A DNA stretch of 64,000 nucleotides. It comes from an uncultured Alteromonas sp. Its GTDB lineage: Bacteria > Pseudomonadota > Gammaproteobacteria > Enterobacterales > Alteromonadaceae. A program made the position numbers and the translations under genes. Within the stretch, counting starts at the first letter, position 1. Each line of letters starts with the position of its first letter. Positions 15,004-46,775 of this stretch are shown piece after piece. The stretch covers positions 32,210 through 96,209 of the forward strand of contig CAYSDZ010000008.1 in the NCBI GenBank assembly GCA_964429915.1. Direction: 5' to 3'. Under the pieces are notes generated by a model, which was given only the letters and a program-made list of their open reading frames with translations, was not told the DNA's origin and ran no database searches.

Positions 15004-18000
15004 ATGTTTAAAAGTTCTAGGTTAGCGTCAGCTATTAAGTTAGCAGGCGTGGTCGGAGCAGCTTCGCTTACTTTGACTTCGCCGCTTCAAGCGCAAGAAA
15101 GTGACGCTGCGGAAGGGAAAATCGAAAAAATTCAGGTTACTGGTAGTCGCTTGAATACTAATCCAAACTTAACATCGGCGAATCCGGTTCTTGAAATATC
15201 AAACCAAGAAATCAGTGCTCGAGGTGTTATCAACATAGAAGATTTGACCAACACCTTACCTCAGATTATTCCAGGTCAGACGTCTGAACAATCTAACGGT
15301 GCCTCTGGTACTTCTCAGCTTGACCTTAGAGGGCTTGGTGCAGTTAGAACCTTAAGCTTAATTGATGGTCGCCGTTTACCTTTCGGTGATTCTGGCTCTT
15401 CAGCAGTCAATATTGACATTGTTCCTACAAACCTAATCGAAAGAATTGAGGTGTTGACAGGTGGTTCGTCTGCTGTATACGGATCAGACGCGGTAAGTGG
15501 TGTTGTAAACTTTGTGCTTAAAGATGATTTTGAGGGTGCAGAGTTAAACGTTCAATATGGTTTCGCACAAAGCAATAATGAGCGTCCATTGTTTGAAGAA
15601 GTACTAATTGCTAACGAACAACCCGTTCCCGGCAGTACAGTCGATGGCGAAGAAGTTTCGGTATCATTAACGCTAGGTACTAACTTAGATGATGATAAAG
15701 GGAATATTGTTACATTTTTCTCTTATCAGAATCGTAATGAAATTATTGGTGCTGATAGAGTTGGCTCTGCATGTACATTGGGTGGTGGCGACACTAACGG
15801 GTTTGGTTGTGTAGGCTCTTCAAACTTTAGACGCTTTAATAACTTGGCGGATTTTGGCGCAACTGATTTCTTTCAGCAGGAAGATGGTACTTTTACTCCA
15901 TTTGCTGGTGGACCTGCCGAAACGTTCAACTTTGGTGCCACTAACTTTTTCTTACGTCCAGCAGAACGTTTCCAATTCTATACCAAAGCAAATTATGAGT
16001 TTGCAGAAGGACATGAATTATTTGCTGATATCGGGTACATTCAAACGGTATCAGACGCTCAGATTGCTCCTACTGCTTCGTTTGGTTTTTTCGCTCGTAG
16101 CATAAACTGTGGTAACCCTCTTATTCAAGATCCAGTAACTGAAGACGGCCGTTCTATTGCAGAAGCTGTATTACTTTGTTCTCCAGATCAAATTGCTGCA
16201 GATATTGCAAATCCAGGTTCTGTAATTATTGATGGTTTAACCGCTACACATAGAAATGTTGAAGGTGGTGAGCGTAACTCAAGGCTTGAAAACTCTACAT
16301 TTAGATTCGTTGGTGGAGTGCGCGGAGAGCTTAATGATGTTTGGGGTTATGAAGCATTTTTACAATATGCTGAATCAAGAGATGAAGACACTTCTACAGA
16401 AGATTTCCAAATAGACCAACTTGGTCAAGCCATCTTAGTGCAGCTTGACGAAGAAGGGAATGCCGTTTGTATTGATCAATCCAATGGTTGTGTTCCATAT
16501 AACATCTTCCAAAGAGGACCTAATGGTGAGTCGCTTGTAACCAGAGAAGCATTGGATTTCATTGAAGGTGTTGGAATAGTTACTGGTCAAACCGATCAGT
16601 TGGTGCTTGGTGGACATGTACAAGCCGACTTGGGGAATTATGGAATCGAATCACCGCTGGCGCCTGAGTCAGGTGTTGGATTTTTATTCGGTTTGGAATT
16701 TCGTGATGATGGATTAGCTGCATCACCTGATCAAATAAGTCAAAGAGATGATGGTGGTTTCACAGGTGTCGGTGGGTCAACATTGCCTGTTGAAGGGAAT
16801 ATTGAAGTATTCGATATTTTTACTGAATTACAAGTACCGTTAGTGACAGACGCGAGCTGGGCACAAGAGTTGGTATTTAATGCTCAATATCGCCACTCCG
16901 ATTACACAGTAAATGGAAATGGCGTTACAAACGACTTCGGTACTGATACTTATGGATTTCAGCTAACTTGGAAACCTGTAGAGGATGTTACTTTCCGAGG
17001 GCAGGTGCAACGTGCTGTTAGAGCGCCGAACGTAATCGAGCTTTTTACAGGTCAATTTACCAGTCTTCCTGAACTTTCAGCGATTGACACGCCTAACGGT
17101 GATGTATTTGACCCCTGTGCAACAGCTAACCCTGTAGCAACTCTTGATCAGTGTGCCAACACTGGGGTTACAGCAGCCCAATTTGGAAATATTCCAGACA
17201 TTGTTGCTGCTCAGGCTGGTGGTATATCAGGGGGTAATCCTGAACTAACTCCTGAAACATCTGATACAGTAACACTTGGTTTAGTGTATGTTTCGTCTCA
17301 TATAGAGGGTCTTACGGGGTCTTTGGATTATTTCGATATCTCAATAGAAGACGCTATCGTTGGTGGTATTGGAGCTCAAAATATTCTTGATAACTGTTTA
17401 GAATCTGGCAACCCACTGTTTTGTGATTTAGTAAACCGAGACGCTGCAGGTTCTTTAAACCCTGGTGTGTCAGTAGCTGAAAACATCGGTTTCTCTCTTA
17501 CTAATACGAACGCTGCGTTTCTTGAGACCAAAGGTTTTGACGTTCAATTAAACTATCAGCGTGAAATTGATAAAGTGGGTTCTATTTCTGCGCAGTATGC
17601 GGGTACGGTTGTTACTGCTAATGATTTCACGTCATTCTTAGGCTCCGATACAATTGAAAGAGAAGGTCGCTTTGTTGGTCAAGCTGGTTTACCCAGAGCC
17701 GATTACAGACACAGAGTGTTGATTAATTGGGGAACACTTGTTGAGGGCTTAACAGCAACAATAACGTGGCGTCATTTTGCAAGTGTTGAAAACGAAAGCA
17801 ATCCTAATTCTGCTATCGAAGGGTCACTACCAGCAGTCAACTATTTCGATGTCTCTGCAACATGGGAATTTCTTGATGGGTATAGGTTCAGAGCGGGTGT
17901 AAATAACCTTCTTGAGGAAGATTTCCCAATTTCGGTTTCTTCAGGGCCTGCTATAAACGGTAACAACAACACTTTCCCTGGTGTTTATGATACCGGTAGA

Positions 18001-18033
18001 CAGTTCTTCTTTGGACTAGACGTTAGGCTTTAA
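15004..18033 (+). CDS. TonB-dependent receptor
   Basis: Signal peptide, IEKIQVTGSR, LRGLGAVRTLSLIDGRR, IERIEVLTGGSSAVYGSDAVSGVVNF, C-terminal YDTGRQFFFGLDVRL. Confidence 0.95.
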   Translation: MFKSSRLASAIKLAGVVGAASLTLTSPLQAQESDAAEGKIEKIQVTGSRLNTNPNLTSANPVLEISNQEISARGVINIEDLTNTLPQIIPGQTSEQSNGASGTSQLDLRGLGAVRTLSLIDGRRLPFGDSGSSAVNIDIVPTNLIERIEVLTGGSSAVYGSDAVSGVVNFVLKDDFEGAELNVQYGFAQSNNERPLFEEVLIANEQPVPGSTVDGEEVSVSLTLGTNLDDDKGNIVTFFSYQNRNEIIGADRVGSACTLGGGDTNGFGCVGSSNFRRFNNLADFGATDFFQQEDGTFTPFAGGPAETFNFGATNFFLRPAERFQFYTKANYEFAEGHELFADIGYIQTVSDAQIAPTASFGFFARSINCGNPLIQDPVTEDGRSIAEAVLLCSPDQIAADIANPGSVIIDGLTATHRNVEGGERNSRLENSTFRFVGGVRGELNDVWGYEAFLQYAESRDEDTSTEDFQIDQLGQAILVQLDEEGNAVCIDQSNGCVPYNIFQRGPNGESLVTREALDFIEGVGIVTGQTDQLVLGGHVQADLGNYGIESPLAPESGVGFLFGLEFRDDGLAASPDQISQRDDGGFTGVGGSTLPVEGNIEVFDIFTELQVPLVTDASWAQELVFNAQYRHSDYTVNGNGVTNDFGTDTYGFQLTWKPVEDVTFRGQVQRAVRAPNVIELFTGQFTSLPELSAIDTPNGDVFDPCATANPVATLDQCANTGVTAAQFGNIPDIVAAQAGGISGGNPELTPETSDTVTLGLVYVSSHIEGLTGSLDYFDISIEDAIVGGIGAQNILDNCLESGNPLFCDLVNRDAAGSLNPGVSVAENIGFSLTNTNAAFLETKGFDVQLNYQREIDKVGSISAQYAGTVVTANDFTSFLGSDTIEREGRFVGQAGLPRADYRHRVLINWGTLVEGLTATITWRHFASVENESNPNSAIEGSLPAVNYFDVSATWEFLDGYRFRAGVNNLLEEDFPISVSSGPAINGNNNTFPGVYDTGRQFFFGLDVRL

Positions 18034-18117
18034 AAGTTAACGATATAGTTGCAGCTCCTGTACTTAAGTTGTTTTAATGGTACATATTCTGCTCTAACTT
18101 TTAATACTCGTTTACTC

Positions 18118-18150
18118 AAAAACCTCTGATTTATATCAGAGGTTTTTTTT
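18118..18150. terminator. Rho-independent terminator (bidirectional-type)
   Basis: AAAAACCTCTGAT-ttat-ATCAGAGGTTTTT plus a T run. Confidence 0.9.
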
Positions 18151-18277
18151 GCCCAGCGAAGCTGGCAAACCCGTCAGACTGAAAGAAGTTTGAGTCACCC
18201 TGATTGAAGGGAAGACAATCCGAATCGCATCCGGTGGTGCGAGAGTAGGGAGAATGTAAACTCTCCCCCTACTCGAT
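18149..18277 (+). mobile_element. ORF-less group IIC intron-like remnant (about 130 bp)
   Basis: Ends in CCGGTGGTGCGAGAG…CCCCTACTCGAT, the IIC domain V 3' half plus domain VI with bulged A and AY end; starts TTGCCCAGC immediately after a terminator stem-loop. Confidence 0.6.
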
Positions 18278-18312
18278 GTACTCACGAAACCAGTTGAAAA
18301 AAGCGATGGTTC

Positions 18313-19389
18313 TTAAAAAACATACTCCATCAAAAAATCGGGCATATTGAAGTCCATATCACAGGTTTGCTCATTAAAGCCCTCGTCTAGTACTTCTGTA
18401 ATGTAGGCCAACTCATTCTGTTGAGTCGTTATTGTACGGAGGACGTTTAATTTTTTTATCGCCAACTGTGTTTCTTTTTCGCATCCAAATTGTTTGGCCT
18501 GAAAAATTTTAGCGTAGATATCCCCCTGTTTCGCTGCTTCTACTATGAGCGCTATGCCGCCTGCTTTTAACTCAATGATACCTAAAATGAACTTTGCTCT
18601 TGCTTCATTTCGCGCATTAATTAAAAAATTCAAAATGGTTTTGGTTTTATAGCTTGAGCGAGGGTAGGGCTTGGTTTTTTGCCAAGATTTTGCAGGGAAG
18701 TAACCTTTGTAAAAAGCAAAGGCATGTTTCAAAGCTAGCTCAGTGCTAATAGAAGACAGTGAACTTGGGGAAACATCTATCGCACGATTGTTTTTTTGTT
18801 CATAAGCAAGATTTAGCTTAGCGACTTCTTCCTGCTTTTCGTTCTGAAAGCGGTACTCACTGACAACTACAGCAGTAATGCTCAACGTGATAAATGTACT
18901 GATACTCGCAATTGGAACCGCCACGAACCAACGATTTTTCACCATTTTGAAACTGTTATGTCGATTCAGTTCGACGAGTTTGTAATAAGCTTTGTGCTCA
19001 TAAAAAGCGACACGTGTCTTTGACAAATAAACAGACAGCGCAGCACCAGAGGTATAAAACAAGAAATAAACGGTGGCCCACAAGGTATTATTTGGGATCA
19101 TGGTGAGGTCTAAAGCAAATGCCGCAAGTACAAGGAGTAAATGGTTACAAAGACCAATGATTGAAAAGACAAAGCCGTAACCTTTACCAAATACGCGAAC
19201 TATTGCACCAATCAATACGCCGGATAAGGTTAACATTACTGGAGCAAGGGTGGTGTCGACTTCAACCAAGGCATACCACAAAACTAAAAAAACAGGCGTA
19301 AAAATAGGGCAAATAAGCGAAGCGCGTATCGCGTTTTGAGTTTTTAGCTTTTCGGAAACAGAGTCCAGTAAGTTTTGTTCTACATGCAT
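18313..19389 (-). CDS. Hypothetical membrane protein with a helical C-terminal domain
   Basis: Several TM segments then a soluble helical tail; start placed at MHVEQ (19389) to avoid overlapping the upstream kinase. Confidence 0.65.
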   Translation of the reverse strand: MHVEQNLLDSVSEKLKTQNAIRASLICPIFTPVFLVLWYALVEVDTTLAPVMLTLSGVLIGAIVRVFGKGYGFVFSIIGLCNHLLLVLAAFALDLTMIPNNTLWATVYFLFYTSGAALSVYLSKTRVAFYEHKAYYKLVELNRHNSFKMVKNRWFVAVPIASISTFITLSITAVVVSEYRFQNEKQEEVAKLNLAYEQKNNRAIDVSPSSLSSISTELALKHAFAFYKGYFPAKSWQKTKPYPRSSYKTKTILNFLINARNEARAKFILGIIELKAGGIALIVEAAKQGDIYAKIFQAKQFGCEKETQLAIKKLNVLRTITTQQNELAYITEVLDEGFNEQTCDMDFNMPDFLMEYVF

Positions 19390-19435
19390 ATTATGGGTCT
19401 TGGTTGCGGCTTGAATAGTAGTATTGCTTACAGTG

Positions 19436-21691
19436 TTATTGTTGTTCTGATTTAGAAAAAAGAATAGTGTCGCATGTTCGAAACAAAATAGGAATGTCAA
19501 TAGGCTTACCAATATGCGCACTGAATCCTGCTTGCTCGTAACGTGAAATATCCTCGGCGTAAACATTAGACGTCAGTGCAACAATAGGAATTGTCGGATA
19601 AGCAGCTTTGATCTGCCTGCAAGCATCAACACCGTCCAGATTCGGCATTTGAATATCCATTAAAATTAAATCAAAGTGTTGTTTGTGGGTTGTTTCAATG
19701 GCTTCGACTCCATCATGAGCAAAAACGAGTTGAGCCTGAGAAGGTGCAAGCATAGATTCAATAATGGCTCGGTTGATTTCATTGTCTTCAGCAATAAGAA
19801 AACGTTTGCCTGAATAGTCTGACTGTGGTTCAGCTAGCGTAGCTTGGGGTTGTGTAGGTTGTTTGGATGCCGTTAAGGGCAAGCTCACAATAAAACGAGC
19901 GCCTTTCCCCAACTCACTGCTCACCTTTATAGAACCGTTCATCATATCAACTAATGACTCAGTAATAGCCAAGCCAAGGCCCGTACCACCAAACTTTCGC
20001 GTGGTTGATTCATTGACTTGCTCAAACCGAGAAAACAACTTGTTCAATGCCTCATCGGGAATACCTATCCCAGTATCACTCACTTCAAAACATAATTGCG
20101 TTGAATCGATAAGATGCAGTTTCACCTCACCTTGTTCGGTAAATTTTACTGCGTTACTGCATAAATTAAGCACGATTTGTTTTATTCTTACTGGGTCGCC
20201 CAACCAACCATCACAAAAATTTTGATCGACCTTGACGGAAAAACTCAACGGTTTCTTTTGAACTAAAGGCGCGAGATCAGACTCCACCGACCTAACCACG
20301 TCAAGCATTTCAAAGTGAAGCGTTTCAAAAGTCAATTTTCCAGCTTCTATTTTTGAGTAGTCTAAGATGTCGTTAATAATGGTCATTAAATTGTGGCTAG
20401 AAAAAAGCGCTTTTTCAATTAGATGCAAGCTATGCCGCTCGCTAGTGCGGTTTTGAATGAGTTGCAAAGCACCGTGAATACCATTTAGGGGCGTACGTAT
20501 TTCGTGGCTCATATTCGATAAAAAAACAGATTTTGCGGCATTCGCCGATTCAGCTTCTTTCTTAGCAGATTCTAGCTCGCCTGTTCTTTGTATTACCAGT
20601 CGCTTCAAATTTTGGTTAAACCAATGCTGCCCCAACGAATAAAAAAGAATGATTGTGGTAATAAAAGCCCCGATAGCGAGATAGGTTTTGTTAAAGGTAT
20701 AGGCTTCTGTATTGTAATCATCTAAAAACAAGCCATTTAAATTTAACTGATTTTGCATAATGCCTAAATCTTTATAAGTTTGTGCAATACGTTCAAATCG
20801 GGCAGGAAATAAGGTACCTATTTGCACAAACTTGGGCTTGATAAGGCTTTCAATCACTTCAGCTTCGTCTAAAAGACGGGATAGAGGTATGTTTGCACCG
20901 TATTGTTCGATAATGACTTTGGCAATTTCCGCTTTATTCTCAAGTGCATACTTCCAACCTTTTCTCGACGCTTCTGTAAAAGCTTCTACGTCAGTTCGGT
21001 TATTTTTGACGTACTCTTCAGTTGTAAATAGTAAGTCACCATAAAAGTCGATACCGTAGGAAGCGGGGTCGATTATGTTGATGTCAAACTTTTTATCGGC
21101 ATAGTATAGGGGCTGGTCTGAACGATAGGCAGCCATTAAATCTGTGACGCCTTCAATTAAAGCATCATCATCAAAAGCTTGTGGTATGTACTCATAATCT
21201 TGTTCCTCTAAGCCCGCGAATAATAGCAAAGCTTGCAGAGAGGCGTCGTCAATGTTTTTTTGAAACATAATTGAACGACCGCGTAAATCGTACGCACTCA
21301 CAATATCTTTTTCTTTCAAAGACATAAAAACAAGCGGGCTTGTTTGAAACACAGATGTGGCGATTACCACAGGGTGACCATTCAAACGATGCAAAACGAT
21401 GCTTGAATCAGACAAACCGAACTGTGCTTCGCCCGTTAATACTGTTTCAAGCGGAGAACGGCTACCATCGTGTTGTTTTATGCTTACATCAAACCCTGCT
21501 TGGTCATAAAAACCTTTGTGCTTGGCAGCGTAATAACCTGCAAATTGGAAGCTATGAAACCACTTTAGTTGCAGGGTGACAGGTTCTTGAGCTGTACACG
21601 AAAATGCAGCAAGAAAGCAAAGAGCCACCGACATTGCAGCAATCAAAACTATTCGTAGAACCATTAAAATAAGACTTTGTTTTACCGTCAA
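19436..21691 (-). CDS. Hybrid sensor histidine kinase / response regulator with an NMT1/THI5-like periplasmic binding domain
   Basis: QLKWFHSFQFAGYYAA; H-box FLSNMSHEIRTPLNG; NLCSNAVKFT, DTGIG, GGTGLGL; REC DLILMDIQMP. Confidence 0.93.
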   Translation of the reverse strand: MTVKQSLILMVLRIVLIAAMSVALCFLAAFSCTAQEPVTLQLKWFHSFQFAGYYAAKHKGFYDQAGFDVSIKQHDGSRSPLETVLTGEAQFGLSDSSIVLHRLNGHPVVIATSVFQTSPLVFMSLKEKDIVSAYDLRGRSIMFQKNIDDASLQALLLFAGLEEQDYEYIPQAFDDDALIEGVTDLMAAYRSDQPLYYADKKFDINIIDPASYGIDFYGDLLFTTEEYVKNNRTDVEAFTEASRKGWKYALENKAEIAKVIIEQYGANIPLSRLLDEAEVIESLIKPKFVQIGTLFPARFERIAQTYKDLGIMQNQLNLNGLFLDDYNTEAYTFNKTYLAIGAFITTIILFYSLGQHWFNQNLKRLVIQRTGELESAKKEAESANAAKSVFLSNMSHEIRTPLNGIHGALQLIQNRTSERHSLHLIEKALFSSHNLMTIINDILDYSKIEAGKLTFETLHFEMLDVVRSVESDLAPLVQKKPLSFSVKVDQNFCDGWLGDPVRIKQIVLNLCSNAVKFTEQGEVKLHLIDSTQLCFEVSDTGIGIPDEALNKLFSRFEQVNESTTRKFGGTGLGLAITESLVDMMNGSIKVSSELGKGARFIVSLPLTASKQPTQPQATLAEPQSDYSGKRFLIAEDNEINRAIIESMLAPSQAQLVFAHDGVEAIETTHKQHFDLILMDIQMPNLDGVDACRQIKAAYPTIPIVALTSNVYAEDISRYEQAGFSAHIGKPIDIPILFRTCDTILFSKSEQQ

Positions 21692-46208: not shown

Positions 46209-46775
46209 TCACGCTCTGCTTTGAAATTTTCTTTCCTCAACATTAATTTTTATTATCTCGCCCGTAGCAATATATTCTGGCACTTGCACTGTTAAGCCCG
46301 TTGTCAGCTTTGCAGGCTTGGTTCTCGCCGAGGCAGATGCGCCTTTTATTGAAGGGTCGGTCTCGATAATTTCCAGTTCAACACTTTGAGGAAGTTCGAT
46401 CGCAACGGGCACATCACTGACAATCAGTACTTGTATTCCATTGGTGTTTTCATTGAAAAACAATGATTCTTCTGCAAGCCCTTCTTTATTTAGATGGTAA
46501 GGCGTGTAATCTTCGCTATCTAAAAACACGAAATCGTCACCATCCATGTAAGAAAACATAGCAGGACGACGCATCAAATCGGCCATATCAAGCATGTCTG
46601 AATCTTTAAATGATTCGTCGAATTTTGCGCCGCTTACAATATCGTACATTCGCATACGGTAAATGCTGCCTCCGGCACGGCCTTGAGGCACTGAGCGTTC
46701 AATGTCTCTTACCACGCAAGTTTTACCGTTGAAAACGATGGTGGCGTTCTTTTTTATTTCGCTTGCCTTTGGCAT
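46209..46775 (-). CDS. efpL: Elongation factor P-like protein EfpL (YeiP)
   Basis: MPKASEIKK, loop PQGRAGG with Arg at the tip, [19 protein letters not shown]. Confidence 0.9.

Follow-up and report, generated by a model that had tools for sequence, protein, structure and literature searches.

We analysed a 64-kb stretch of DNA from an uncultured marine bacterium, which stems from a seawater metagenome assembly and is referred to here as the window. A TonB-dependent receptor gene and a gene for a 358-aa hypothetical membrane protein lie in it, and the 279-bp spacer between them holds an intrinsic terminator and a 131-nt element (Table 1). The element (18147-18277) consists of stacked hairpins, stands directly behind the terminator and ends in ...CTCGAT at 18277. 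A first-pass annotation of this DNA had described an intrinsic terminator followed by about 130 nt of stacked hairpins, and both were confirmed at these positions. Several Rfam sRNA models matched the terminator hairpin through their own terminator parts. No tRNA or tmRNA remnant was found in a search.

For the 358-aa protein, Pfam gave no domain above threshold, and a total of only eight relatives was found in 5.8 billion clusters. The start called for its gene in public assemblies is 19389 (358 aa). It is not that of the mechanical 417-aa ORF (18313-19566, minus strand), which overlaps the upstream hybrid histidine kinase gene (19436-21691, minus strand) by 130 bp.

Table 1. Coordinates of the features at the locus (positions in the window; a slash marks a boundary or separates the two strands of a stem)
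Feature	Position	Strand	Remarks
TonB-dependent receptor	15004-18033	+	Plug and beta-barrel domains
Bidirectional intrinsic terminator	18118-18150	.	A5, 8-bp stem, 4-nt loop, T8
Terminator stem	18123-18130 / 18135-18142		CCTCTGAT / ATCAGAGG; A5 at 18118-18122, T8 at 18143-18150
5' exon T-run (IBS-like TTTT)	18143-18146	+	Boundary from alignment with full-length copies, stem-TTTTT/GTTTGCCC
Intron positions 1-83, start of domain I	18147-18229	+	Three conserved hairpins; gapless alignment with 40 relatives
Hairpin CCAGC/GCTGG	18153-18157 / 18161-18165
Hairpin TCAGACT/AGTTTGA	18174-18180 / 18187-18193
Hairpin GTC.CCCT/AGGG..GAC	18194-18216
Hairpin GCATC/GGTGC	18227-18231 / 18236-18240
Deletion junction	18229/18230	+	About 1.97 kb missing between these bases
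Decayed domain V 3' strand and V-VI linker	18230-18242	+	TCCGGTGGTGCGA; family, TACGGTTCTGTGA
Domain VI remnant and 3' end	18243-18277	+	Ends in the family terminal 11-mer CCCTACTCGAT
Hairpin GAGTAGGG.GA/TC.CCCTACTC	18243-18274
Gene for 358-aa hypothetical membrane protein	18313-19389	-	Convergent with the TonB-dependent receptor gene

The spacer is predicted to be highly structured. The region 18110-18290 folded with -68.3 kcal/mol (z = -6.4), and none of 200 shuffled sequences was as good. For the element without the terminator (18151-18285), the fold gave z = -3.4, which was reached by one of 200 shuffles. The sole ORF in the element encodes 49 aa in the antisense direction (18136-18285). 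It lies wholly within the inherited RNA helices described below and was not considered a gene.

Full-length relatives and their class

A 22-nt motif from the first hairpin, TGCCCAGCNNNGCTGGCAAACC (18150-18171), was searched in species-representative genomes. It matched at least 120 genomic stretches and marks the 5' ends of elements. The hosts included Vibrio, Aliivibrio, Pseudoalteromonas, Alteromonas, Paraglaciecola, Shewanella, Marinomonas, Colwellia and Psychromonas, and further matches came from Pirellulaceae, Victivallales, Spirochaetes and Geobacteraceae MAGs. When 18 of these loci were tested, the Rfam model group-II-D1D4-3 (RF02001) matched in all but L026, and its match started about 85 nt beyond the motif. 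Intron_gpII, which covers domains V-VI, was found 2.0-2.1 kb downstream on the same strand in most of the 18. The full-length group IIC introns that the first-pass annotation had suggested looking for elsewhere are thus present in relatives at about 2.1 kb (2084-2186 nt). Their 5' end was uniform and read hairpin-TTTTT/GTTTGCCCAGCGAAGCTGGCAAACCCG..., with the intron starting at GTTTGCCC. The 3' end read ...GAGCCGTATACGAGGnCCGTACGTACGGTTCTGTGAGAGGG-stem-CCCT-A-CTCGAT and was aligned as ...GAGCCGTATACG..GTACGGTTCTGTGAGAGGG..CCCT-A-CTCGAT. The window element shares both this end and the 5' GTTTGCCC.

The class of the family was examined through its protein and its flanks. One full-length copy of 2104 nt (L037) encodes a 424-aa IEP with RVT_1 and GIIM domains, which scored 412 bits on TIGR04416, and no endonuclease domain was found in this IEP. 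Its best solved relatives were the IIC proteins 7uim and 6ar1 (275 bits), compared with 139 bits for the IIA protein LtrA and 134 bits for the IIB protein T.el4h. Among the matches listed, 110 of 117 distinct 5' flanks had at least five T among their last 8 nt. The MFE of the 5' flanks was -17.3 kcal/mol, compared with -6.2 kcal/mol for control 42-mers (p = 1.6e-50). IIC introns are defined by their insertion behind intrinsic terminators (PMC1702495, PMC4424553). On the basis of the protein and of these flanks, the family was assigned to class C.

The family includes shortened forms. Enough downstream sequence was available for 38 listed copies: 17 were full length, one measured 1729 nt, five were ORF-less and 15 were 5' fragments. 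The ORF-less forms were 751-888 nt long (L025, 802; L029, 888; L030, 850; L056, 751; L120, 840). Rfam was run on two of them (L029 and L056) and found both D1-D4 and domain V-VI in each. When all five were compared with L037 by BLAST, each showed the 5' part of the ribozyme as well as the domain V-VI end, although the matches in the divergent L029 were patchy. Two ORF-less copies, from an Alteromonas MAG (L030:93-942) and from Thalassotalea sp. ND16A (L120:5743-6582), were colinear end to end at 81.5% identity and had identical deletion limits relative to full-length copies. As judged from their alignment, this ORF-less lineage has probably spread between genera with help in trans. ORF-less introns of such a kind are said to be rare in bacteria.

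Several other arrangements were observed in the family. In tandem cases, one copy started directly behind the CTCGAT end of another (L027:6233-6310, L021, L075 and the 3' flank at L120:6582). Among the matches listed, the 3' end of another intron copy formed three of the 117 5' flanks, and in tandem copies the domain VI hairpin apparently takes the place of a terminator as the target. In Paraglaciecola sp. MB-3u-78, a 5' intron fragment (L026:1734-1980), made up of about the first 86 nt and a short piece, lies directly behind a 5S rRNA gene and thus behind the rrn operon terminator. Five loci from MAGs of Planctomycetota and Deltaproteobacteria (L035, L080, L101, L104 and L124) shared only the first ~26 nt (GTTTGCCCAGCGAAGCTGGCAAACCC) and then diverged fully. 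They may be highly divergent sister lineages in which the 5' hairpin is kept, or else very short stubs.

The two ends of the element

The terminator (18118-18150) would have been the target site of the intron, and its last four T (18147-18150) are already part of the intron remnant. The putative exons flanking the element are ...CAGAGGTTTT on the 5' side and GTACTCACG... on the 3' side, with boundaries at 18146/18147 and 18277/18278. Among the 40 relatives, 45 columns of the 5' part are invariant, and the element matched 44 of these. The closest counterpart of the 5' part among the matches listed was in an Oleiphilaceae MAG (L016; 90% identity to 18147-18229), a locus which was rejected as a full-length parent as it is cut off by a host gene within ~1.1 kb. 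In the domain I hairpins of the 41 sequences, 97.7% of the cells were paired and 87 double (compensatory) changes were counted. This level of covariation was reached by none of 500 shuffles, and no slid register came near it. Judged from this alignment, the hairpins described at first correspond to helices that are conserved at the start of domain I.

The retained 3' part corresponds to the last 48 nt of the intron (18230-18277). Its terminal 11-mer is unique in the window (18267-18277) and also terminates relatives. A covariance model of domains V-VI of the family (R1) was built from 15 sequences and run on the whole window. The top match was 18222-18277 (21.1 bits, rough E ~0.003), and 25 domain V positions were deleted in its alignment. 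The same model gave a second-best match on the minus strand (46573-46671; 17 bits, E ~0.03), which lies inside a 216-aa ORF without Rfam support and was attributed to chance. Between the two retained parts, the remainder of domain I is missing, as are domains II-IV, which contain the RT/maturase ORF, and the loop and 5' strand of domain V. The first-pass annotation was correct that there is no RT ORF and that the 5' half of domain V is not recognisable, as the ORF list and the deletions in the R1 alignment respectively show. No RT/maturase ORF is present in the element.

Rfam covariance models were also searched, as had been proposed at first pass. No intron model matched the window at the gathering threshold or the region 17950-18450 at E <= 10, and only terminator-like partial matches were returned. 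For the catalytic hairpin of domain V, RF00029 gave no match in 17950-18450 at E <= 10, and only the decayed 3' strand is left. For ribozyme domains I-IV, there was no group-II-D1D4 match in the window or in 17950-18450 (E <= 10). Rfam misses the remnant because RF02001 begins near intron position 89, while positions 1-83 are kept, and because RF00029 needs domain V. The missing match is therefore uninformative as a refutation, since the surviving pieces are those that Rfam cannot score.

The retained ends also carry changes at functional positions. Position 1 of the element is T (UUUUG), compared with G (GUUUG) in 115 of 118 relatives among the matches listed. The first-pass annotation had described a domain VI with a bulged A located 7 nt from an AY end. 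The homologue of the branch-point A (18271) is indeed present 7 nt from an AT end, but in the best fold it pairs with T18246 and is not bulged. This A is bulged in full-length relatives, whereas in the window an extra T pairs with it. The element has no domain V, no exon-binding parts and no IEP, its position 1 is U, and its branch-point A is paired; therefore, neither splicing nor mobility is expected of it.

The 3' part matched 17 of the 25 invariant columns of the family, a set in which invariance is inflated because the sequences that define it were chosen by a strict pattern. This only moderate similarity, together with the rough E-value of the R1 match, counts against reading the element as a remnant of a single intron. 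The GGTGGTG of the domain V 3' strand also counts against it, as it resembles another IIC lineage (L069). Since the 3' half is more diverged and carries this GGTGGTG, the two ends may descend from two copies. The element would then be a chimera of a tandem pair or of two insertions, the loss having extended from position 84 in the first copy to domain V in the second. The listed tandem flanks (L027, L021 and L075) and the asymmetry between the two parts favour such an origin. However, the element and this same family end in an identical 11-mer, the strict selection inflates the 3' invariants, and the asymmetry is equally explained by faster decay of a half-helix without its partner. We consider a chimera rather unlikely.

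Copy number and syntenic relatives

Contigs of the four metagenomes that hold the source genome (X1-X4) were mapped to 17800-18600. In these metagenomes, 18143-18177 was covered 5-60 times as deeply as the flanks, and depth over 18232-18285 equalled the flank depth. The junction 18229/18230 was crossed by source contigs only. Other contigs matched 18143-18202 or 18143-18229 at ~88-92% and then continued into unlike sequence; upstream of 18143 they carried different terminator hairpins. Thus, at a likeness of at least 80%, the four metagenomes contain a single copy of the junction and of the 3' part. The first-pass annotation had proposed a search for multiple copies behind terminators; in these metagenomes such copies were found for the 5' part, but not for the junction and the 3' part.

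Depth also identified further pieces of the family. Contigs that track the depth of the genome across X1-X4 (179.8, 12.5, 119.7 and 15.9, compared with 187, 13.7, 118.5 and 14.9 for the genome) carry a second, shorter 5' stub, equivalent to 18143-18202. It consists of about the first 56 nt followed by TGCTATCTAAGCGG..., and its upstream flank is unlike that of the window element. A domain V-VI end is present on other contigs at genome depth. As judged by depth, the source genome probably contains several intron pieces. In run X1, the source assembly breaks inside the 5' module (contigs end at 18177 and start at 18148), and the L002 contig ends at the same place (window 18148-18177). The repeat of this intron family fragments short-read assemblies.

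The first-pass annotation had suggested, as a possibility, a non-autonomous, MITE-like family mobilised in trans. In such a family, the RNP or IEP of full-length members would act in trans and copy the 131-nt mini-intron to new terminators. Related introns, or their domain I and V-VI parts, are abundant in the same metagenomes, and contigs tracking the depth of the source genome carry a domain V-VI end. ORF-less derivatives also exist and apparently spread between genera (L030 and L120). However, the single-copy state of the junction and 3' part in the four metagenomes argues against such a family. None of 121 family members among the matches listed had both ends within 700 nt, and no second copy of the element was found in the 64-kb window with blastn-short or nhmmer. 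A scan of JGI metagenomes for CGGTGGTGCGAGAGTAGGG, aimed at parent or sister mini copies, gave only four chance matches in GC-rich coding DNA. BLAST of the 3' 56 nt against 120 loci gave no match, with a query too short and too diverged. In addition, the ORF-less derivatives that spread keep domains I-III and domain V, and the window element is without both. Retrohoming requires the catalysis of the intron RNA itself; the element lacks the catalytic parts for reverse splicing, G1 is replaced by U, and the branch-point A is paired. We therefore regard mobilisation of such a family as extremely improbable.

We compared the locus with those of relatives. In one relative (L004-L006), whose neighbouring protein is 79% identical, the gene order is kept, with a histidine kinase, a 357-aa gene and a convergent receptor-sized gene. 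Its spacer (L004) is 75 bp long and contains a terminator and ~22 nt but no element, compared with 279 bp in the window. The 88% and 51% relatives of the 358-aa protein have other neighbouring genes, and the element is absent there. By this comparison of loci, the element is read as an insertion. No exact empty-site allele of the window locus, with the terminator joined directly to GTACTCACGAAACC, was found.

The same comparison bears on whether the element could have been exapted as a structured RNA, either as an sRNA or as a 3' UTR that stabilises or regulates the convergent 358-aa gene. Its predicted structure is strong on both strands (z = -6.4 and -5.4), and its 5' module is nearly unchanged at the invariant columns. 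It lies between the minus-strand stop codon and the bidirectional terminator, where antisense transcription is expected. However, a promoter scan found no promoter-like site, relatives lack the element in the orthologous spacer, and the structure is fully explained by inherited intron helices. An exapted role is very unlikely.

Origin and significance of the element

The element is, in all likelihood, an inactive remnant in which the two ends of a group IIC intron surround one large internal deletion. Both ends are homologous to the intron family, the position is behind a terminator, the core is absent, and the element is single-copy and absent from the syntenic relative. The insertion event, the mechanism of the deletion and the neutrality of the element are what we infer. 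The proposal made at first pass of an internally deleted group IIC intron behind a terminator is supported by the homology to many full-length introns.

In the proposed history, a full-length intron of this marine gammaproteobacterial family would have reverse-spliced behind the terminator hairpin and T-run of the receptor gene. The RNP would have recognised the stem-loop and the T-run and inserted the intron in the sense orientation, which is the normal target choice of IIC introns, and the intron would then have been copied into DNA. A later loss of ~2 kb would have removed the part from intron position 83 to the 3' strand of domain V. It may have occurred by DNA deletion, by a template jump during cDNA synthesis or by deletion across a tandem pair. 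On the plus strand, the terminator would shield the element from the receptor gene. On the minus strand, the element is predicted to be read only in antisense, within the 3' UTR of the 358-aa gene, whose transcript would end at the bidirectional terminator. The element would today be a passive passenger.

The window element was compared with the IIC introns B.h.I1 of Bacillus halodurans, O.i.I1, GsI-IIC and E.r. IIC (PMC1702495; 6ar1, 7uim). It likewise lies behind a terminator in the sense orientation, and its termini are homologous to full-length terminator-targeting introns with endonuclease-less, IIC-like IEPs. In contrast to those introns, it keeps 131 of ~2100 nt, is without domain V, an IEP and domains I-IV past the first 83 nt, and has U at position 1 and a paired branch-point A. 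Among bacterial intron copies, truncated or inactivated ones are in the majority (PMC4424553), and the stub in the window, as a wreck, is consistent with this. Like degenerate bacterial copies, it lies outside genes, in a genome and community with related copies. Most fragments found here retain one end, whereas the window element retains both exact ends and has a single internal deletion.

Other known systems resemble the element in part. ORF-less group II introns that are assisted in trans by the IEP of a relative (PMC4424553) also have no IEP of their own, and the community of the window element contains related introns that encode one, but those ORF-less introns keep the full ribozyme, which the element does not. 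The group III introns of Euglena gracilis chloroplasts are 90-120 nt long and contain only domain I and domain VI motifs (PMC4424553). The window element is similar in size and architecture, with a domain I stub, a domain VI and no domain V. By this analogy, it could be a bacterial counterpart, a 131-nt stub still recognised, and excised or reverse-spliced, by the RNP of full-length members within one cell. Group III introns, however, are found in many copies inside essential genes and are spliced with trans-acting help, whereas the window element is bacterial, intergenic and single-copy, with G1 mutated. Such a counterpart is highly improbable.

These results indicate that the feature is an unannotated, ordinary dead relic of a known class of mobile element and not a new kind of element. 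Its own biological interest is small, as it adds one more dead group II intron piece in an uncultured marine bacterium, and bacteria are known to be littered with such pieces. The Rfam group II models cannot detect a remnant made of the first 83 nt and domain VI; the short 5' motif of the family together with the terminator context reveals it. The IIC family itself is very widespread in marine Gammaproteobacteria and also occurs in Planctomycetota, Spirochaetota, Victivallales and Desulfuromonadota-like MAGs. It breaks short-read assemblies and includes ORF-less lineages that seem to have spread.
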